From: Desulfobulbaceae bacterium
GTDB taxonomy: Bacteria; Desulfobacterota; Desulfobulbia; Desulfobulbales; UBA5123
NCBI GenBank assembly: GCA_029865195.1
Contig: JAOUHH010000002.1
Coordinates: 1 to 37,967, forward strand
Direction: 5' to 3'
Length of the DNA stretch: 37,967 bases
The notes below the pieces were generated by a model. It ran no database searches and had not been told where the DNA came from. It saw only the letters and a list, made by a program, of their open reading frames with translations. The position numbers and the translations under genes are program-made. Of this stretch, positions 1 through 6,501 are shown piece by piece. Numbering within the stretch: position 1 is the first letter of the stretch; each line of letters starts with the position of its first letter.

Positions 1-127
1 TTTCGTGGTGACCCCAAGGGGACTCGAACCCCTGTTACCGGCGTGAGAGGCCTATTGCATTACAATAATATCAGCCACTTATAGGCATCGTTACCACTCA
101 TTTACCATCTGACATGAACGGGAAACG
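1..127. repeat. Terminal direct repeat, copy 1 (identical to 37841-37967)
   Basis: Read base by base, tttcgtggtgaccccaagg...catgaacgggaaacg occurs at both window ends. It contains the tRNA fragment and the last 30 nt of int. Confidence 0.95.
6..52 (-). other. attP core: 3' ~47 nt of a tRNA-Glu(CUC) gene (fragment, not a functional tRNA)
   Basis: The reverse complement reads GGCCTCTCACGCCGGTAACAGGGGTTCGAGTCCCCTTGGGGTCACCA. This gives anticodon loop CUCUCAC (anticodon CUC), T-arm AGGGG/TTCGAGT/CCCCT, the acceptor 3' strand and CCA. It parallels the 3' half of E. coli tRNA-Glu. No D-arm or 5' acceptor strand follows. Confidence 0.75.
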
Positions 128-1234
128 ATCCTCAAACACCTCTCCGGATGCTTCGGTGTGGTCATAATGGTTGAGCATCCGCTCGTCCTCGTGGCCGGTT
201 CGATGGCGGGCCTGCCGCTTCTCAACCCCGAGATCCAGCAGCCTGGTGGTATAGGTGTGCCGGCTGTCATGTAGCCTCATTCCGACAATCCCGCACCGGC
301 GGAAGTGCCTGGCGATGGCCCTGGACACTGATGTCGGGGCGTATTGCGGCAGGATCGGCCCTTGTTCTCCCTTGCGAGGGGCCAATAGGTTGAAAAGCCT
401 CCCCCCAAGACCAACCCACCGCGCTACCCCGGTCTTTGTTTCGACCACCCTCAGCATCCGCTTGTCCCAGTCGATATTTTCTATTCTGGCATCCAGCGCC
501 TCTTTGCGGCGCAATCCACAACCAAGGAACATCAGCAGGTAAAGGGTCATGTGGCCCCCGAGGGCTGGTTGCGGAGTTGCGTCCGAGGCTGCGGCTACCT
601 CCAGCACCGTGGCAATCTGGTCATGTGTCAAGACCACATGGCGGATTTTCTCATCCTTCGGCACCCGCTCGCCCTTCAACATCGAGAATGGATCGCCAGC
701 CAACGCCCCGGTCGCCACCTGCAGCCTGAACATCCTCCGCAAGTCCTGCAGGTGTTTGTTGACCGTGGCGGCCTTTAGATGCTCTCCGCGCCTGACCGTT
801 GCAGCCCGAAGAGAGGCTTTCACGCGCTCGCCGTGCATGTGCCGGACTTCCCCTATTGGGGTGGAGGCGCCAAGTAGATCAACAACCCTGGCCACCCTCC
901 CCTCCCTGGCCTCCCTCTCCCCAGTGCTGATCCGCCCCCAGGTTTCGCGGTAATCATCGGCGGCCTGGGCCACCGTCTTTCTGCCATCACTCATCGCCAG
1001 CAATCGTTGAATGTCTACCAGGCTGACCAACCCCTCACGTTGCCACTCGGCCACCTCGTCGCTGGTGTATTGTTGGCGTCTGGTGCGCGACTCTACCACG
1101 TCGGCAAGTGCCCGCAGCGCCTTCGCTTCGCCAGCCCGATCGCACCGCCGCGACCGTTCGACAGCTGCGCCGGATGGAAGGTGGACGTAGTACCTGACCC
1201 GGTACTGCCCGTCTATCTTAGTTATTGAGGCCAT
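98..1234 (-). CDS. int: Tyrosine-recombinase phage integrase (378 aa)
   Basis: Catalytic pattern is present: GCGLRRKEAL (Arg), LHDSRHTYTTRLL (HxxR), GHEDERMLNHYDH (His and Tyr). The stop lies 45 bp from the tRNA-fragment core. Confidence 0.92.
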   Translation of the reverse strand: MASITKIDGQYRVRYYVHLPSGAAVERSRRCDRAGEAKALRALADVVESRTRRQQYTSDEVAEWQREGLVSLVDIQRLLAMSDGRKTVAQAADDYRETWGRISTGEREAREGRVARVVDLLGASTPIGEVRHMHGERVKASLRAATVRRGEHLKAATVNKHLQDLRRMFRLQVATGALAGDPFSMLKGERVPKDEKIRHVVLTHDQIATVLEVAAASDATPQPALGGHMTLYLLMFLGCGLRRKEALDARIENIDWDKRMLRVVETKTGVARWVGLGGRLFNLLAPRKGEQGPILPQYAPTSVSRAIARHFRRCGIVGMRLHDSRHTYTTRLLDLGVEKRQARHRTGHEDERMLNHYDHTEASGEVFEDRFPFMSDGK

Positions 1235-1673
1235 TTCACGTTTCCAGTCAAAACAACACGAAAAGAGCGAAAAACGAGCAATAATATACGTGTTTCCGGT
1301 AACAACCAGAAGTTACTGCGCATCACGCCACCCCCAAGAACGAAACAAAACAAGGAAACATCAATTATCCCAACCAATTAGGTGGATCTGCCCCAAGCCG
1401 TCCGTCAACGGGTTGACATGGGCGCAATTTCTGCCCATCTCCGCGCCATGCCGTCGCTACTCACCGAAATGGGGAGGGGGGTGCAAATCTCTACCCCTTT
1501 TCACAGCGAGACCGTTTGGGCAGTGAAATTCTCGCGGCCGCGAAATGAAATGTTTTGATATCAGGTGGTTGCTTGTCGTTTTGTTAGGCAAATACGGTAT
1601 CTTTGGCATGGTTTTTGACTCGGGAGGCATGGGCGTGTTACGCGGCCATGATCGGTGTGTCAAAAAGTTGGCG

Positions 1674-2021
1674 CTATACTTCCGGGCCGCTGCCGGCAAG
1701 GGTTGCGGTGTCTACAGGCTCGTCGGCAGGTGACGGCGACTTGGTTTGTTCCGGGTTGGGAGCCGGTGGCGCCGATGACTCTTGGTGGTGGCTCGGAGAT
1801 TGGTCAGGGATACTTGAGGCGATGAGTTCCACCGCGGCGATGCAAGATATAATTCGCGGGTAGAGCCTGTCCACCATCTGCTCAACGTGGCGCACGTCCT
1901 CCTGGATTTTCCACACGAAGTACGGCATGAAGATAGCAAGGATCACCATGAACAAAAATATGGCCCCCACCGCCAGGGCTGCAACAGCCCCAAACCACCC
2001 GCCGCCGAAGTAATGTTCCAT
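1674..2021 (-). CDS. Small single-pass membrane protein, last gene of the lysogeny-side cassette
   Basis: ATG at 2021 lies 8 nt after the upstream stop; the ORF track instead extends to a TTG at 2057. Has one strong hydrophobic helix (WFGAVAALAVGAIFLFMVILAIFMPYFVW) and then a Pro/Ser/Glu-rich tail. Confidence 0.6.
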   Translation of the reverse strand: MEHYFGGGWFGAVAALAVGAIFLFMVILAIFMPYFVWKIQEDVRHVEQMVDRLYPRIISCIAAVELIASSIPDQSPSHHQESSAPPAPNPEQTKSPSPADEPVDTATLAGSGPEV

Positions 2022-2029
2022 ATCGCCCG

Positions 2030-2668
2030 TCACATCCTGAAGGAAATATCCGCCCAAAGGTCTTCCGAGATGATCGCCGGTCTGCCAAACTTCTCCCGGT
2101 ATTCCACCGCCTTTTCTATCTTCCGCCCATAAGCGGTGTGCGCCCAGTCGGTACTTGAAAAGGTGCCGATCACCAGGTAGTCAACCGCCTTGGTTATATA
2201 CCCCTCAACCCGTCCACCCCGCTCCTCGATAACCGCCTCGCATTCTCTGCGCGGCCCATAGGCAAAACTTCCGGTGAGACAAAACCCCATGGTCGGTATC
2301 TCTACCACCGGAGGCGGCTGGCAGAGCGGAAACCATGCCGCCATATTCTCCCTGGCCAGCAGGGTGGATGCACCCGAAAAAGCGCTGAGAATACCAAGCA
2401 ACTCCTGGCGCTCGTCAGCATCTAACACGCCATCTATCAGCATTTCATGAATGCGCCGGTAAATACTGTTGACGGTCCAGTCTTCGCAGAATGAGACGTT
2501 TGCGACCATCCATGCCAAAAGAACCCGCGCCTCCTGATGGTTGACCGTAGCATCGGCAACGATGCCGCGAGCCATCCCGATCATCTCATCAATGGCCCGG
2601 TCGTTAAGCCGCTTGCGGTTGTATAGCCGGTTGATCGGCTGGCCATGGTCGTCAAGTATGCTGTCCAT
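2030..2668 (-). CDS. TerB-like N-terminal domain fused to a C-terminal BRCT domain (212 aa)
   Basis: The N-terminal half has a TerB-type pattern (LIDGVLDADERQELLGIL). The C-terminal ~80 aa parallels the NAD-ligase BRCT (GFCLTGSF..RECEAVIEERGGRV..TKAVDYLVIG..GRKIEKAVE..IISED). Confidence 0.7.
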   Translation of the reverse strand: MDSILDDHGQPINRLYNRKRLNDRAIDEMIGMARGIVADATVNHQEARVLLAWMVANVSFCEDWTVNSIYRRIHEMLIDGVLDADERQELLGILSAFSGASTLLARENMAAWFPLCQPPPVVEIPTMGFCLTGSFAYGPRRECEAVIEERGGRVEGYITKAVDYLVIGTFSSTDWAHTAYGRKIEKAVEYREKFGRPAIISEDLWADISFRM

Positions 2669-3154
2669 TCACCCCACCTCCACCGCTATTGGAGAGCGGG
2701 CGGCGATGCGGTCATAGACATGCCTAAACGCCACCGCCCGGTCAATATCTCCGTAGTCAACAAAAGTCGTGTCCTGCCCGGGCAACTCCAGCCGATATCC
2801 AGATCCGTCAGCCACCATGAAATATGGCATCCCGCTGTAATGGTTGGCGTCCCGCACGGTAAGCCGAGACCCGCCAATCTTGGCGGCCTCTGCTAACTCT
2901 TCTATTATCTTGCAAGTGATGATTTCGTGCCCACACTGGCAAGCCAGTTGCAAGTGGTGTCCACTTGCTGCCAAAAACAGACAGGCAGCGTCAAGAAAAT
3001 CGTCTTGGTATTCGCGGTCGGCGCGGCCGGTAAAGATACACACCTCCCTGTCGGCCTGCTCGATCATAGCCCGATAAGCCGCCAGGTGGTCTCCGTCGCC
3101 TCGGATGGCCATACGTTTCCGCCGCCTCGCCATATAGGAATAATAATCGACCAT
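2669..3154 (-). CDS. Hypothetical protein (161 aa), first gene of the three-gene cassette
   Basis: Long ORF with GC-rich third codon positions. Its stop directly abuts the start of the BRCT gene (2669/2668). No motif recognised. Confidence 0.7.
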   Translation of the reverse strand: MVDYYSYMARRRKRMAIRGDGDHLAAYRAMIEQADREVCIFTGRADREYQDDFLDAACLFLAASGHHLQLACQCGHEIITCKIIEELAEAAKIGGSRLTVRDANHYSGMPYFMVADGSGYRLELPGQDTTFVDYGDIDRAVAFRHVYDRIAARSPIAVEVG

Positions 3155-3226
3155 ACGCGCAACCTAACAAACAAACAACTGGCGGCGCAATGGGTGACAA
3201 CACGTATTTTAAGGGGTGTAAATCAC

Positions 3227-3541
3227 TTACTGGTTGACGGCCCGCGACTCAGGCTCGCCGTTTCCATCTCCACCGCCTGCTTCCATGTCCCTGGCATCGA
3301 GCTCCTGCAGAAACCGCTGCATAACGTTGTCGATTGTTTCCCGCCGACCATGGCCTGGCCCACTTTCACCTCTGTGAATGGTCAAAGATGCGGTGCTCGC
3401 CTTCCCGGACCTTCCTTCCATGAACCTGGCAAACCGAGGAAACCGCTTGGCAAAGGCAAGCATCACCCAGATCATCTCGTCCATTGAGCAGGTTTCGATA
3501 AACTCCAGCAGTGATCCCCGCAATTTCTCCTTTTCAATCAC
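3227..3541 (-). CDS. Hypothetical protein (104 aa), translationally coupled to the repressor gene
   Basis: GTG start overlaps the stop of the CI-like gene (GTGA). No recognisable motif. Confidence 0.6.
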   Translation of the reverse strand: MIEKEKLRGSLLEFIETCSMDEMIWVMLAFAKRFPRFARFMEGRSGKASTASLTIHRGESGPGHGRRETIDNVMQRFLQELDARDMEAGGGDGNGEPESRAVNQ

Positions 3542-4185
3542 TTTGTCGCCTCTTCTTTTGTTTCCCTCGCCTCCGGCCGCTGCTGTTTTCCTCCCTGGAA
3601 GTGCTTGGCGTACCAGGCCGCAAAGTCTGAACTGGATGCTATCTGCATGTAAACATTGGTAATATCATCGTCATTCAATTGCCGGATGTACTCAATCAGC
3701 CGATGGTGGTACTTGCTCATTGCTTTTGCCGGCAGCACACCACGCAAGTCAGACACCCCGCGCTGCAGGGTGTTATCGTCGTGCATTCCCTTATAAGCCA
3801 CATTGATGGTGTTCACCACTGCCGCTGAAAACTGCCCGCCATGCTCCACCACACTCTTCATCCGTTCGGCCAGATCCTTGGTATCTACCGCCTGTGTTTC
3901 CTTTCCATATGCCGGATCGTGCTGGCCGGTGACGGCGGCAGCCGGCGGCTGCTGGTCGTATGCGGTGCCGATCTTCTGCGGCCCCTGGCCGGTGAGAAGC
4001 CATGCTGGGTTGATGTTGTGGCTTACGCTAACCCGCAAAATCCATTCCGCTGGCACATTATCCCTGTTTTTTGCCTCAGAGACGGTTGCCGTCCGCAAAC
4101 CAAGCAACTTCGCGAGCTGTGTTTGGTTTTTCACACCAGTCACAGCTTTAATTCTTTCAAAAATTTCCTCAAAAGTTCCGCTCAC
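3538..4185 (-). CDS. CI-type phage repressor (phage-186-like HTH), no S24 peptidase domain
   Basis: GTG at 4185 is preceded by AGAGGA; the ORF track extends to 4278. The HTH FEEIFERIKAVTGVKNQTQLAKLLGLRTATVSEAKNRDNVPAEWILRVSVSHNINPAWLLTGQG resembles the Phage_CI_repr family. Divergent to a Cro/Ner-like gene. Confidence 0.8.
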   Translation of the reverse strand: MSGTFEEIFERIKAVTGVKNQTQLAKLLGLRTATVSEAKNRDNVPAEWILRVSVSHNINPAWLLTGQGPQKIGTAYDQQPPAAAVTGQHDPAYGKETQAVDTKDLAERMKSVVEHGGQFSAAVVNTINVAYKGMHDDNTLQRGVSDLRGVLPAKAMSKYHHRLIEYIRQLNDDDITNVYMQIASSSDFAAWYAKHFQGGKQQRPEARETKEEATK

Positions 4186-4265
4186 TTGTATCCTCTGGCG
4201 CGAAAAAATACGGCAACTTGAATTTTTCCCTTGCGTAGTTTTACGGCAAGGCGTAATGTAGAGCC
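4186..4265. promoter_or_regulatory. Divergent promoter/operator interval of the genetic switch
   Basis: Imperfect palindrome CCTTGCGTA-gttt-TACGGCAAGG (4229-4251), plus a third TACGGCAA at 4209-4216. A candidate rightward promoter, TTGCGT (4231-4236)-17 nt-TAATGT (4254-4259), overlaps the palindrome. Confidence 0.5.
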
Positions 4266-4472
4266 ATGGAGAGTTCAAACGAACGCAAAATTAGATCTTG
4301 GATCGTACTCGCTGGGGTAACCCAAACGGCAATTGCCGAATCGATTGGCGTCAAGCCGTCCAGCGTTAACGATGTGATCGCCGGTCGTCGCAAAACCAAG
4401 CGCATCCGCGAAGCCATCGCCAAGGCCATCAAGATGCCGGTTTCTGAAATCTGGCCGGCAAAGGCGGCTTAA
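4266..4472 (+). CDS. Ner/Cro-like small DNA-binding protein (68 aa)
   Basis: IRSWIVLAGVTQTAIAESIGVKPSSVNDVIAGRRKTKRIREAIAKAIKMPVSEIWP parallels Mu Ner-type HTH proteins, including the terminal EIWP. Sits in the position of cro. Confidence 0.8.
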   Translation: MESSNERKIRSWIVLAGVTQTAIAESIGVKPSSVNDVIAGRRKTKRIREAIAKAIKMPVSEIWPAKAA

Positions 4473-4795
4473 TTGTACCCGCCATTAACGTTTGTAATTT
4501 TGGGATGCTTATCTGGTCGCGGGTACACGCGCAACCTGTTGCCGCTTGAACAGTCAATAAAATAATAACCATCAGGAGTCATGGAGCCGACAGATATAAC
4601 CTCAAAGCAGTTCAAGCCGTATGTGTTTGTAGCATGCCAAGCTAAATCTGCTTTTGTGAGTCCGTAACTGGTGTTTGCAAGCCTCACATTGTTGTTATAC
4701 CCGGACTGGTCGGCCCTTGATGGTTCAGAATCAGATCTGCAAGAAGAAACAAAAATCAGCAACACAAAGAACAGTAGATTTTTTCTGTTTAACAT
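4469..4795 (-). CDS. Lipoprotein moron (108 aa), low-GC
   Basis: ATG at 4795 is preceded by GGGGGA. Signal peptide plus lipobox: MLNRKNLLFFVLLIFVSSC. The region is clearly AT-richer than its flanks. Its stop overlaps the stop of the Ner-like gene (TTAA). Confidence 0.75.
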   Translation of the reverse strand: MLNRKNLLFFVLLIFVSSCRSDSEPSRADQSGYNNNVRLANTSYGLTKADLAWHATNTYGLNCFEVISVGSMTPDGYYFIDCSSGNRLRVYPRPDKHPKITNVNGGYN

Positions 4796-4829
4796 AGTTC
4801 CCCCGCCGACAGCAGCAAGCGACATAGAC

Positions 4830-4888
4830 AAAAAACTGGCGGCTGGCAGGACCACCAAGGCAAGAGGTTGTTACCACTGCCAGCCGCC
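4830..4888 (-). terminator. Strong hairpin plus U-tract, leftward intrinsic terminator or attenuator just upstream of the lipoprotein gene
   Basis: Perfect 12-bp inverted repeat GGCGGCTGGCAG (4838-4849) / CTGCCAGCCGCC (4877-4888). On the minus strand it is followed by AGTTTTTT (4830-4837). Confidence 0.55.
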
Positions 4889-4898
4889 ACAAAAGAAA

Positions 4899-4964
4899 CC
4901 CCGCCCCCCGGACGCAATTGTCCCGTCGATGGGTGGCACCTCCGATGATACCAGGGGGGCGGGG
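4899..4964. promoter_or_regulatory. Long GC hairpin (11-bp stem CCCCGCCCCCC/GGGGGGCGGGG, 44-nt structured loop)
   Basis: Complementary arms at 4899-4909 and 4954-4964. An inner GGAC..GTCC mini-hairpin is also present. No credible coding sequence overlaps it. Confidence 0.45.
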
Positions 4965-4977
4965 AATTTGGCAAGCC

Positions 4978-4999
4978 CCCCGTTTCCGTCCGGGGTTTT
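4978..4999 (+). terminator. Rightward terminator-like hairpin (5-bp GC stem, then TTTT)
   Basis: CCCCG-tttccgtc-CGGGG followed by TTTTG. Lies between the switch region and the next rightward genes. Confidence 0.4.
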
Positions 5000-5082
5000 G
5001 CACCTCCTCCTACCCTCGGCTGCCGGCTTGCGAGGGGTAAAGAACCGCCGGCCACCTTCAAACTCAAAAAGGGAGCACCGTC

Positions 5083-5298
5083 ATGACCACATTCGACAGG
5101 CAGGCAACGGCCCTTCGCACCGCCATCAAAATGGCCAAGCTGGCCAGCACACCCACCACCATCACCGCTATAGAAACCCATTTCCGATCCATCTTGGCCT
5201 CCGAGGAAAAACACCGGGGCGGGTCCGGTAACTGCAAGTTGGGGTGCGCCGTAACCTCGCACCGCCACGGTGTTTCCTCTACCATGTCACAGGCCTGA
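5083..5298 (+). CDS. Hypothetical small early protein (71 aa)
   Basis: AAAGGGAG lies 7 nt upstream of the ATG. Third codon positions are strongly G/C-biased in this frame. Confidence 0.5.
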   Translation: MTTFDRQATALRTAIKMAKLASTPTTITAIETHFRSILASEEKHRGGSGNCKLGCAVTSHRHGVSSTMSQA

Positions 5299-5334
5299 CC
5301 TATCAACCAAGGGATTCGGACGAGGCAAAGTATC

Positions 5335-5835
5335 ATGAGCGGAAACAAGCACTACATCCAGACCATCGCGGCCCTCTCCAACCTGTTCTACGGGGCCAGC
5401 GTCGTCGCAGGGTTAACCCCCAAAATCGCCCTTGCCCGCCTTGACGACGAACTCGGCATCAAGATCCCCTACACCACCTTTATGAAATACCTGGCCGGAG
5501 AAACCTGTTGCCCCACTTCGGTGGTGGCCGGCCTCTTTGTCCTCACCGAAGACCCGGGCCTCAAGTTTGTCCTTGAGCCTCTCGGTTGGGAGCTGCAGCG
5601 CCGCGGCTCCGTCAAGCCCGGCCACCTTTCGCCGGTTGACGAACTCATGGACGACATCACCGCCGCCACCATCACCCACAGCGAGATCCAACAGCGGATA
5701 GCCGACTGCCAATGGTCAGAGACAGACCGCACCGCCGCCCTGGCCAAGGTTGAGGCGCAAAAACGTGAGCTCGAAGAAACCGAGGCAGCCATCCGCAACA
5801 TGCCAATCGGGAGGGTTGCAGCATGCCAGGCATGA
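5335..5835 (+). CDS. Hypothetical early protein (166 aa); possibly a 186 CII (CP76)-like regulator
   Basis: Good coding bias. Only weak by-eye resemblance to 186 CII (LFVLTEDPGLKF versus LLTDLTEDSTLV), and in the equivalent position. Confidence 0.6.
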   Translation: MSGNKHYIQTIAALSNLFYGASVVAGLTPKIALARLDDELGIKIPYTTFMKYLAGETCCPTSVVAGLFVLTEDPGLKFVLEPLGWELQRRGSVKPGHLSPVDELMDDITAATITHSEIQQRIADCQWSETDRTAALAKVEAQKRELEETEAAIRNMPIGRVAACQA

Positions 5836-6044
5836 CCACCGCCCGCTGGATACTCACCGCCATGGGCATCACCGGGGCCATACTCAACGCCATGCAGATA
5901 TGGTGGTGCTGGCCATTATGGATCGCGGCCAACATCGGGTGGATAGTTGTTAACGCCAGGTTGCGCCGCCCCCAGGAGTCCACCCTTTTCGCCGTTTACC
6001 TGGCCACCGCAGCCCTCGGCTGCTGGCAATGGAGCAGGCCATGA
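5823..6044 (+). CDS. Small 3-TM Trp-rich membrane protein (73 aa), resembling one repeat of a PnuC-type transporter
   Basis: Three hydrophobic segments: ARWILTAMGITGAILNAM, IWWCWPLWIAANIGWIVV, TLFAVYLATAALGCWQW. Overlaps both neighbouring genes. Confidence 0.6.
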   Translation: MPGMTTARWILTAMGITGAILNAMQIWWCWPLWIAANIGWIVVNARLRRPQESTLFAVYLATAALGCWQWSRP

Positions 6045-6421
6045 GCAACCAGATCATCACCACCGCGGAAGAACTCGCCGCCATCGTCACGCAGGCGGTA
6101 GAGCAGGCAAGGGCAACGGCACCGCTGCCCAGGCTCTACAAATTCCCGGAGGATATCTGCGCCATCATGGGCGGCCATGTGCAGCCGCAAACGGTGCGCT
6201 GGTGGAAGTCGCAAGGATGGATCCGCACCAAAAAGATTGGCCGCAACTCCTTTGTTGAGCCGGAGGAGTGGGAGCGGTTCAAGCGCGACAACGCCGTCAT
6301 GATGGCGGCCAGCCCCCGCAACCGCGGGGCCAGGCTTGGAGGAGGGAAAGATGAATGCGCAACAGCAACGCCTCGACGCCAACCTCGCAGCAGTCAAGCA
6401 GTGCCTGGGTCGCCTGCATAG
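6041..6421 (+). CDS. Excisionase/MerR-type HTH DNA-binding protein
   Basis: ATGA overlap with the upstream gene. Motif ICAIMGGHVQPQTVRWWKSQGWIRTKKIGRNSFVEPEEWERF. The C-terminal tail is low complexity. Confidence 0.65.
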   Translation: MSNQIITTAEELAAIVTQAVEQARATAPLPRLYKFPEDICAIMGGHVQPQTVRWWKSQGWIRTKKIGRNSFVEPEEWERFKRDNAVMMAASPRNRGARLGGGKDECATATPRRQPRSSQAVPGSPA

Positions 6422-6501
6422 CGCTGGCCCTGTGCGCCCTGCTGCTCACCTGCGGCATCTGCCGCATCATATCTCGATTACCGATCAGCGCGCCATACTG
6501 A
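6355..6501 (+). CDS. Possible 48-aa single-TM peptide (unlisted small ORF)
   Basis: GGAGGAGGGAAAG lies upstream. Translation MRNSNASTPTSQQSSSAWVACIALALCALLLTCGICRIISRLPISAPY contains a clear TM helix. It overlaps the tail of 6041-6421 in another frame. Confidence 0.3.
   Translation: MRNSNASTPTSQQSSSAWVACIALALCALLLTCGICRIISRLPISAPY

Follow-up and report, generated by a model that had tools for sequence, protein, structure and literature searches.

The window analyzed here is a 37,967-nucleotide (nt) stretch of DNA from a Desulfobulbaceae bacterium (contig JAOUHH010000002.1). It carries a prophage in which three small genes, numbered 1 to 3, lie at positions 1674-3154 between the integrase gene int and the repressor gene cI. 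The original prediction, made from the sequence alone, had read the three together as an undescribed defense or exclusion system. We find instead that genes 1-3 are independent passengers of a prophage lysogeny operon and do not form one three-gene system. The explanation that we favor, and consider probable, is that the int-cI interval forms the distal portion of a lysogenic operon in the style of phages K139 and 186 with three unrelated accessory genes, in which gene 2 would be a stand-alone BRCT binder and gene 3 an independent moron.

The evidence comes first from gene neighborhoods. A sample of 160 loci encoding gene-2 homologs, 80 genomic and 80 viral, was searched by tblastn, and neither gene 1 nor gene 3 was present at any of them (0/160); p104, a small open reading frame (ORF) next to cI in the window, was likewise absent from all, as were the cI and int genes of the window. 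Clustering of all flanking ORFs from the 160 loci revealed no conserved partner of gene 2, and the immediate neighbors of its homologs are mostly singletons (100/157 upstream and 106/158 downstream). The trio is thus not conserved as a unit, an outcome that the original prediction had itself named as a refutation. PADLOC matches no named defense system with the composition of the trio, as had been anticipated.

Gene 1 has one close homolog among 5.8 billion proteins, P0122, which is encoded by a sister prophage (L165) in the order cro, cI, p109, gene 1 homolog, a 173-residue lipoprotein gene, and int. Identities between L165 and the window are 27% for cI, 34% for p104, and 43% for gene 1, and the lipoprotein gene replaces genes 2 and 3. 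Because L165 keeps cI, p104, and gene 1 without genes 2 and 3, gene 1 is seen to belong to a cI-linked backbone, with an exchangeable slot on the int side. The alignment with its homolog favors ATG 3133 (154 residues) as the start of gene 1 over the first ATG (161 residues). Taken alone, gene 1 gave no significant family match in profile searches. An exhaustive profile search collected 27 representatives, 14 of which match PF25559 (DUF7931; best E = 2.6e-10); gene 1 itself reaches 11.8 bits (E = 0.19), below the gathering threshold of 27 bits, and its subgroup lacks the conserved His in the H-F-x-V-x-D motif of the DUF7931 family. Gene 1 appears to be a divergent DUF7931-like protein, and a comparison of its family profile with the PDB retrieved no related solved structure.

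Gene 3 is an ORFan, as the search of 5.8 billion proteins returned no match other than itself. Its product has the properties of a small single-pass membrane protein that were first ascribed to it, namely a single, strongly hydrophobic segment (residues 13-31; mean of 2.97 over 19 residues on the Kyte-Doolittle scale) followed by a Pro/Ser-rich tail. A relationship to a ZorAB component was considered and rejected, as the similarity (E = 0.013-0.08) is confined to the transmembrane segment and no MotA/MotB-like domain scores above threshold. The slot beside int is filled differently in relatives, by Glo in K139, by lipoproteins in L168 and L165, and by a Zn-ribbon membrane protein in L170, which bears out the view of the int-cI interval as a cargo site. 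By analogy with these occupants, the best reading makes gene 3 an envelope moron in its own right. The features of the locus are as follows.

98-1234, minus strand: tyrosine integrase, closing the leftward lysogeny module (Pfam Phage_integrase, E = 2.1e-15)
1235-1673, no strand: 440-nt noncoding gap from gene 3 to int, with a lower GC content (~0.49) and no ORF with a coding signal
1674-2021, minus strand: gene 3, 115 residues from ATG (alternative TTG start: 1674-2057, 127 residues), with a hydrophobic segment and a positive coding score
2030-2668, minus strand: gene 2, 212 residues, phrog_3989/K139 Orf2 family (phrog_3989, E = 2.6e-60)
2354-2668, minus strand: gene 2 N-terminal domain, residues 1-105 (conservation and predicted helices)
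2033-2299, minus strand: gene 2 BRCT domain, residues ~124-212 (Pfam BRCT, RFC1/LigA alignments, and Foldseek)
2669-3154, minus strand: gene 1, 161 residues from the first ATG (probable ATG 3133, 154 residues; alignment with homolog P0122)
3227-3541, minus strand: p104, with a GTG start overlapping the cI stop (GTGA) and 34% identity to p109 of L165
3538-4278, minus strand: cI repressor of the 186/K139 type, without an S24 peptidase domain (Pfam Phage_CI_repr, E = 3.7e-14)
4266-4472, plus strand: Cro/Cox-like helix-turn-helix (HTH) protein, divergent from cI, marking the switch region (Pfam HTH_35, HTH_3, and Cro)

Between int and cI, the minus strand holds four ORFs, p104 and genes 1, 2, and 3, and the last three are co-oriented with both flanking genes. 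Positions, strand, and tight packing were recovered with the spacings first given: the stop codon of gene 1 (TGA, 2671-2669) directly abuts the ATG of gene 2 (2668), leaving a 0-nt gap, and 8 nt separate genes 2 and 3, a spacing that becomes a 28-nt overlap with the TTG start of gene 3. Codon usage was scored with the long genes of the window as the training set, and all six frames were compared for each ORF. The annotated frames of genes 1-3 score +0.08 to +0.19 per codon, and the remaining five frames are negative. The GC content of genes 1-3 by codon position follows the order GC1 > GC2 < GC3, like that of other genes of the window. As the annotated frames alone are positive and the GC pattern is the usual one, the three ORFs are very probably real genes.

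The BRCT domain of gene 2, recognized from the outset, is supported at several levels. It scores 26.9 bits against Pfam PF00533, above the cut-off of 21.3, and matches the BRCT of RFC1 in the PDB by sequence. In an AlphaFold2 model built with 20 relatives (predicted local distance difference test score [pLDDT], 85.7), residues 128-210 adopt a beta-alpha-beta-beta-alpha-beta-alpha arrangement with a pLDDT of ~90. Foldseek searches with this model return the LigA and RFC1 BRCT domains from the PDB (E = 3e-5 to 1e-4), the BRCT domains of phage NAD-ligases from BFVD, and BRCT heterodimers of XRCC1 and ligase III. LigA and the RFC1 large subunit provide the best matches of gene 2 in both sequence and structure. 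Their phosphate-binding BRCT subclass is defined by T-G after beta-1, an Arg at the start of alpha-1, and a Lys in G-x-K before alpha-2, and gene 2 has each of these, with T132-G133, R140, and G181-x-K183 aligning with the TG, R, and G-S-K positions of RFC1 and LigA. Across 20 diverse relatives, G133, R140, and K183 never vary, and conservation of T132 is 90% or higher. In RFC1, the residues at the TG, R, and G-x-K positions make up the pocket of the BRCT that binds the 5'-phosphate of DNA. On this alignment, the gene 2 BRCT is of the LigA/RFC1 type with a conserved predicted phosphate pocket, and it carries a 9-residue insertion after beta-3 that, in alignment with LigA BRCT, is particular to the gene-2 family. 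XRCC1 binds ligase III via a BRCT-BRCT contact, and the matches to this heterodimer suggest an adaptor analogy for gene 2.

An identity of gene 2 as an NAD-dependent DNA ligase was rejected. Only its BRCT segment matches TIGR00575/PRK07956, with 17 to 20 bits against cut-offs of 369 to 1051, and the adenylation, OB, Zn, and HhH domains are absent. Neither a ligase catalytic subunit nor an exonuclease was found across the window. Several relatives (P0002, P0014, P0028, and phage records H1, H3, H5, H8, and H14) are labeled "NAD-dependent DNA ligase" or "DNA polymerase (III epsilon)"; because the BRCT alone is the basis of these labels, they are mis-annotations.

The N-terminal domain of gene 2 has a conserved D-x-H-G-Q-P lead-in and a four-helix bundle (residues 14-38, 44-57, 64-76, and 84-98 in the AlphaFold2 model) with two D-G-x5-E repeats. 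It had been described as TerB type. Gene 2 itself has no Pfam match to TerB (PF05099, gathering threshold of 24.4 bits), and among the N-terminal domains of 20 relatives, four give subthreshold TerB matches (best E = 0.0029) and two match DUF533. Foldseek of the domain alone retrieves generic four-helix bundles (best E = 0.56) with no TerB among the top 50 PDB matches, and a profile of the domain yields noise only against PDB sequences. The TerB-likeness is weak and unconfirmed, and the domain may be, at most, distantly similar to TerB-domain proteins, including that of Shango, in its two D-G-x5-E repeats. Shango comprises a TerB protein, the SngB ATPase, and the SngC helicase; in contrast, positions 1-6500 encode no ATPase or helicase, and PADLOC finds no Shango match.

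The description as undescribed does not extend to gene 2, which is, judged by its sequence, a new member of a known but uncharacterized phage family. Residues 19-208 align with positions 104-291 of the 296-position profile of phrog_3989, a family annotated as "unknown function," to which K139 Orf2 also belongs. A total of 183 homologs were identified with E <= 1e-3, mostly of ~210 residues and from many phyla, the closest being in metagenome-assembled genomes (MAGs) of Desulfobulbaceae, which points to a probable host in that group. Searches with tblastn also located homologs in cultured temperate phages, namely Vibrio phages K139, Kappa, VPUSM8, and 919TP (orf2), Pseudomonas phages phi1, Marin, Lodos, D14L, and PG1, and Sulfurimonas phage SNW-1. 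At the DNA level, a search of positions 1300-4500 against 50,697 phage records gave no match. Multiple copies occur as well: two family members lie ~12 kb apart on one Thermodesulfobacteriota chromosome (L008 and L010, OZ253668.1), and at six loci the immediate upstream neighbor is a second member of the family.

Members of the family are often found near repressors. A cI/LexA-like repressor lies within 4 kb of the gene-2 homolog at 59/160 loci, ~51 of which are among the 80 viral loci (seed-based search); for a random gene of a 40-kb phage, the expected rate is about 1 in 5, a rough estimate and not a computed control. The repressor is immediately adjacent at 27 of the 160 loci and, by inspection, also at L007 and L120, where it lies upstream on the same strand. 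Apparent HTH/gene-2 fusions at these last two loci were rejected as artifacts of longest-ORF calling, the repressor being a separate upstream gene. Two geometries recur, with the repressor either upstream on the same strand or convergent downstream, often with a 9-nt overlap. In phi1 and Marin the homolog comes immediately after the repressor, and in PG1 a single gene stands between them. In the closest relative (L168, 69% identity), the order is cI, gene 2, a gene for a 156-residue lipoprotein, int, and host xseA, and L176 has an HTH gene, ImmA, one further gene, gene 2, FRG, and int. The FRG protein of L176 (L176:7873-8394), between the gene-2 homolog and int, matches the PADLOC candidate PDC-S15 (E = 5e-53), and this match shows the slot near int to be one that collects defense candidates.

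One of the closest known counterparts is Orf2 of K139 (NP_536630, "BRCT domain-containing protein"), which has the same helical-bundle and BRCT module, with 32% identity over residues 22-205. In the K139 record, a promoter, PL, carries the annotation "transcription of lysogenic operon," and cI, orf2, glo, and int come after it in that order. As in the window, the BRCT gene stands between a non-S24 cI and int in a leftward operon with a small envelope protein directly after it. K139 Orf2 differs in its length of 301 residues, with ~100 extra N-terminal residues, and the window differs from K139 in having p104 and gene 1 inserted between cI and the BRCT gene. Glo, a secreted periplasmic protein described in the record as "involved in phage exclusion," is unrelated to gene 3.

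A second counterpart is PDC-S48, a single-gene defense candidate of PADLOC with a 411-position profile, of which positions 226-411 are homologous to the gene-2 family; the module of gene 2 is thus the C-terminal part of PDC-S48. The profile is matched by 15 of 20 gene-2 relatives (best E = 2.4e-10) and by gene 2 itself with E = 8e-4 over positions 278-376. The N-terminal part of PDC-S48 (positions 7-168) is a DEDDh 3'-5' exonuclease, which is absent from gene 2 and from the window. By this comparison gene 2 is an exonuclease-less form of the PDC-S48 module, and it lacks the feature that defines PDC-S48. The searchable literature contains no validation of PDC-S48.

Immediate neighbors of the gene-2 homologs, classified by Pfam scan, include a DEDDh/RNase_T exonuclease directly upstream at 8 loci, a link that is explained by the PDC-S48 profile, in which the gene-2 module comes after a DEDDh exonuclease. 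In Hymenobacter loci (L052-L078, for example, L075:5062-5871), the exonuclease is a separate gene directly upstream that matches PDC-S48 positions 7-168 with E = 2e-28, a split form of PDC-S48, and some of these loci also have genes for an Lhr-like helicase and an ATPase nearby. At six loci, a full NAD-dependent ligA is directly upstream on the same strand. Four of these (L048, L073, L079, and L080) have a standard homolog of 213 to 224 residues after chromosomal ligA, with gaps of -8 to 42 nt, each being either 42 nt or at most 8 nt, and two (L045 and L057) have a 371-residue variant; the 371-residue protein of Opitutae combines a GYF-like N terminus with a LigA-type BRCT. All six are in PVC-group or Chloroflexota MAGs, and they suggest a ligase-associated role for the gene-2 module outside phages. 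HIRAN, HNH, and OLD-like neighbors are occasional, and one relative is a HIRAN fusion. In Desulforhopalus vacuolatus, the homolog stands between a type I restriction-modification (RM)/GmrSD cluster and a DrmC-like PLD nuclease. Outside prophages, then, the family occurs behind ligA, within an RM/PLD island, and beside insertion sequence (IS) elements.

Beyond the trio, the window holds the genome of a temperate siphovirus-like phage: after the divergent cro at 4266, the plus strand encodes replication, terminase, capsid, and tail functions. The listed cI start (TTG 4278) would overlap the start of cro; homology of cI begins at residue 37, and AGGA-N5-GTG is found at 4185. GTG 4185 is probably the true start, which would leave an 80-nt switch region (4186-4265) and give a repressor of 215 residues, the length of K139 cI. 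Proteins similar to the Cro-like protein adjoin gene-2 homologs in L001 and L083. A 129-residue ORF on the minus strand (4469-4858), between cro and the early genes, has a lipobox (FVSSC) and scores negative for codon usage; its GC content is markedly lower (0.43/0.45/0.48 at the three codon positions), and it looks like a recently acquired lipoprotein moron. Rfam and tRNA searches of the region, including the gap at 1235-1673, returned nothing. This gap, which might be the site of an int promoter or another regulatory element, contains a weak 10-nt inverted repeat (1536-1545/1638-1647).

In the explanation that we favor, the operon would run from cI through p104 and genes 1, 2, and 3 to int, with DUF7931-like gene 1 as part of the cI-linked backbone of the phage and genes 2 and 3 in the exchangeable cargo slot. 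Lambda rexAB, P2 old/tin, and K139 glo are lysogen-expressed exclusion genes beside a repressor or integrase; these are likewise variable cargo co-oriented with cI and int, with no sequence relationship to the genes described here. Gene 3 would be the counterpart, by position, of Glo, the exclusion protein of K139. We infer that gene 2 is expressed in the lysogen, by analogy with the K139/186-type operons in which int is at the end of the cI transcript. The ligand of its BRCT would most likely be either the 5'-phosphate of a DNA nick or end or the BRCT of host LigA, and its N-terminal helical bundle would provide a second interaction. As gene 2 has no catalytic domain, it would act by binding: it might sit on nicks and ends or mark them, or it might tie up LigA or an exonuclease or bring one of them in. 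The most probable use in a lysogen would be interference with incoming DNA, that is, exclusion or defense, the main alternative being a tuning of prophage DNA transactions or of the switch. This proposal draws support from the links of the gene-2 family to enzymes of DNA ends, namely ligA (6 loci), the DEDDh exonuclease (8 loci, and fused in PDC-S48), and the HIRAN fusion. Type I RM, GmrSD, DrmC-like PLD, FRG/PDC-S15, and OLD-like genes are the defense-type neighbors of the family. A defense or exclusion role for gene 2 alone is possible.

Several observations weigh against this explanation. The ligA-operon and DnaQ-BRCT contexts point to housekeeping DNA metabolism as much as to defense. DEDDh-BRCT fusions can be housekeeping proteins, as in mycobacterial DnaQ (bioRxiv 10.1101/2023.10.24.563508), and defense is therefore not established for the gene-2 family. 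PDC-S48 is itself a candidate, and its exonuclease is missing from gene 2. Expression in the lysogen is argued from synteny, and a promoter/terminator scan gave no excess over shuffled sequences, so that operon boundaries could not be set from it. There is, in addition, a hint of BRCT-envelope pairing, which is considered below. The searchable literature, from which the original 1999 and 2002 K139 papers are outside coverage, holds no experiment on any member of the gene-2 family, and searches for BRCT with prophage, defense, superinfection, or PDC-S48 retrieved no functional study.

Among the other explanations, the one that survives best, though we judge it unlikely, is that gene 2 is a lysis-lysogeny regulator that senses DNA damage (nicks or 5'-phosphate ends) through its BRCT and modulates a repressor without an S24 self-cleavage domain. 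The family is strikingly repressor adjacent on either strand, and the S24 domain is absent from the cI of both the window and K139. Modules encoding cI and BRCT proteins replace quorum-sensing modules in Roseobacter prophages, for which a DNA damage response has been suggested in passing (2026 preprint, PMC13345283), a remark that favors regulation but is speculation. However, the family also accompanies self-cleaving S24-type repressors (PG1, cluster 3) and is found outside prophages in the three settings given above, and no genuine HTH fusion is known among the loci, given that both apparent cases were ORF-calling artifacts.

Rather less probable is a two-gene module in which the BRCT protein works with a small envelope protein encoded downstream, the partner being recruited by function and not by homology. 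K139 orf2 and glo overlap and are cotranscribed, and exclusion is the annotated role of Glo; the 8-nt spacing of genes 2 and 3 and the lipoprotein gene directly downstream in the closest relative fit this picture. Before dereplication, ~40% of same-strand downstream neighbors of gene-2 homologs have a hydrophobic segment, versus 22% of upstream neighbors (comparison values of 18 to 22%). After dereplication, the difference is 39% (19/49) versus 23% (14/60) and is not significant (P = 0.096). Moreover, the envelope proteins are mutually unrelated, the slot in L165 has a lipoprotein yet no BRCT gene, and many family members have nonmembrane neighbors or a convergent repressor downstream.

We regard as very unlikely that gene 2 is an antidefense decoy, in which a copy of a PDC-S48-like host protein, stripped of the exonuclease, would compete with the original for its ligand. 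Homology to PDC-S48 positions 226-411 without the DEDDh domain, in a window with neither exonuclease nor ligase, would suit a decoy, but a site beside the repressor in the lysogeny operon fits lysogen-expressed genes better than early antidefense genes, the chromosomal copies follow ligA, and PDC-S48 has itself not been validated. Least credible of all is a novel three-component system of sensor, BRCT adaptor, and membrane effector, which the tight packing on one strand (0 and 8 nt), the cargo slot, and the lack of a PADLOC system matching the trio might favor, but which nonconservation already largely refutes and which is opposed by the absence of co-occurrence in 160 loci, by the presence of gene 1 with cI and p104 in a prophage that has neither gene 2 nor gene 3, by the ORFan status of gene 3, and by the occurrence of the gene-2 family alone in very different contexts.

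Returning to the explanation that we favor, a bolder extension of it can be offered tentatively, as a possibility with the balance against it. The phrog_3989 module may be a widespread nonenzymatic prophage device whose BRCT occupies 5'-phosphate nicks and ends or captures LigA in the manner of XRCC1, and which would thereby block the sealing or circularization of superinfecting DNA or couple nick status to the lysogenic switch. If true, this would be a new single-gene mechanism of exclusion or sensing, encoded beside the repressor in many phyla.

The proposed three-gene defense system is not supported, and there is no ground for pursuing the trio as such. What emerges in its place is a large family, labeled "DNA ligase" in databases on the strength of a BRCT alone, that is repressor adjacent in temperate phages of Vibrio, Pseudomonas, Sulfurimonas, and many uncultured lineages and is linked, through neighboring genes or fusions, to LigA, the DEDDh exonuclease, and HIRAN. 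As genetics is feasible in K139 and in the Pseudomonas phages, the role of the gene-2 module in lysogens is directly testable.

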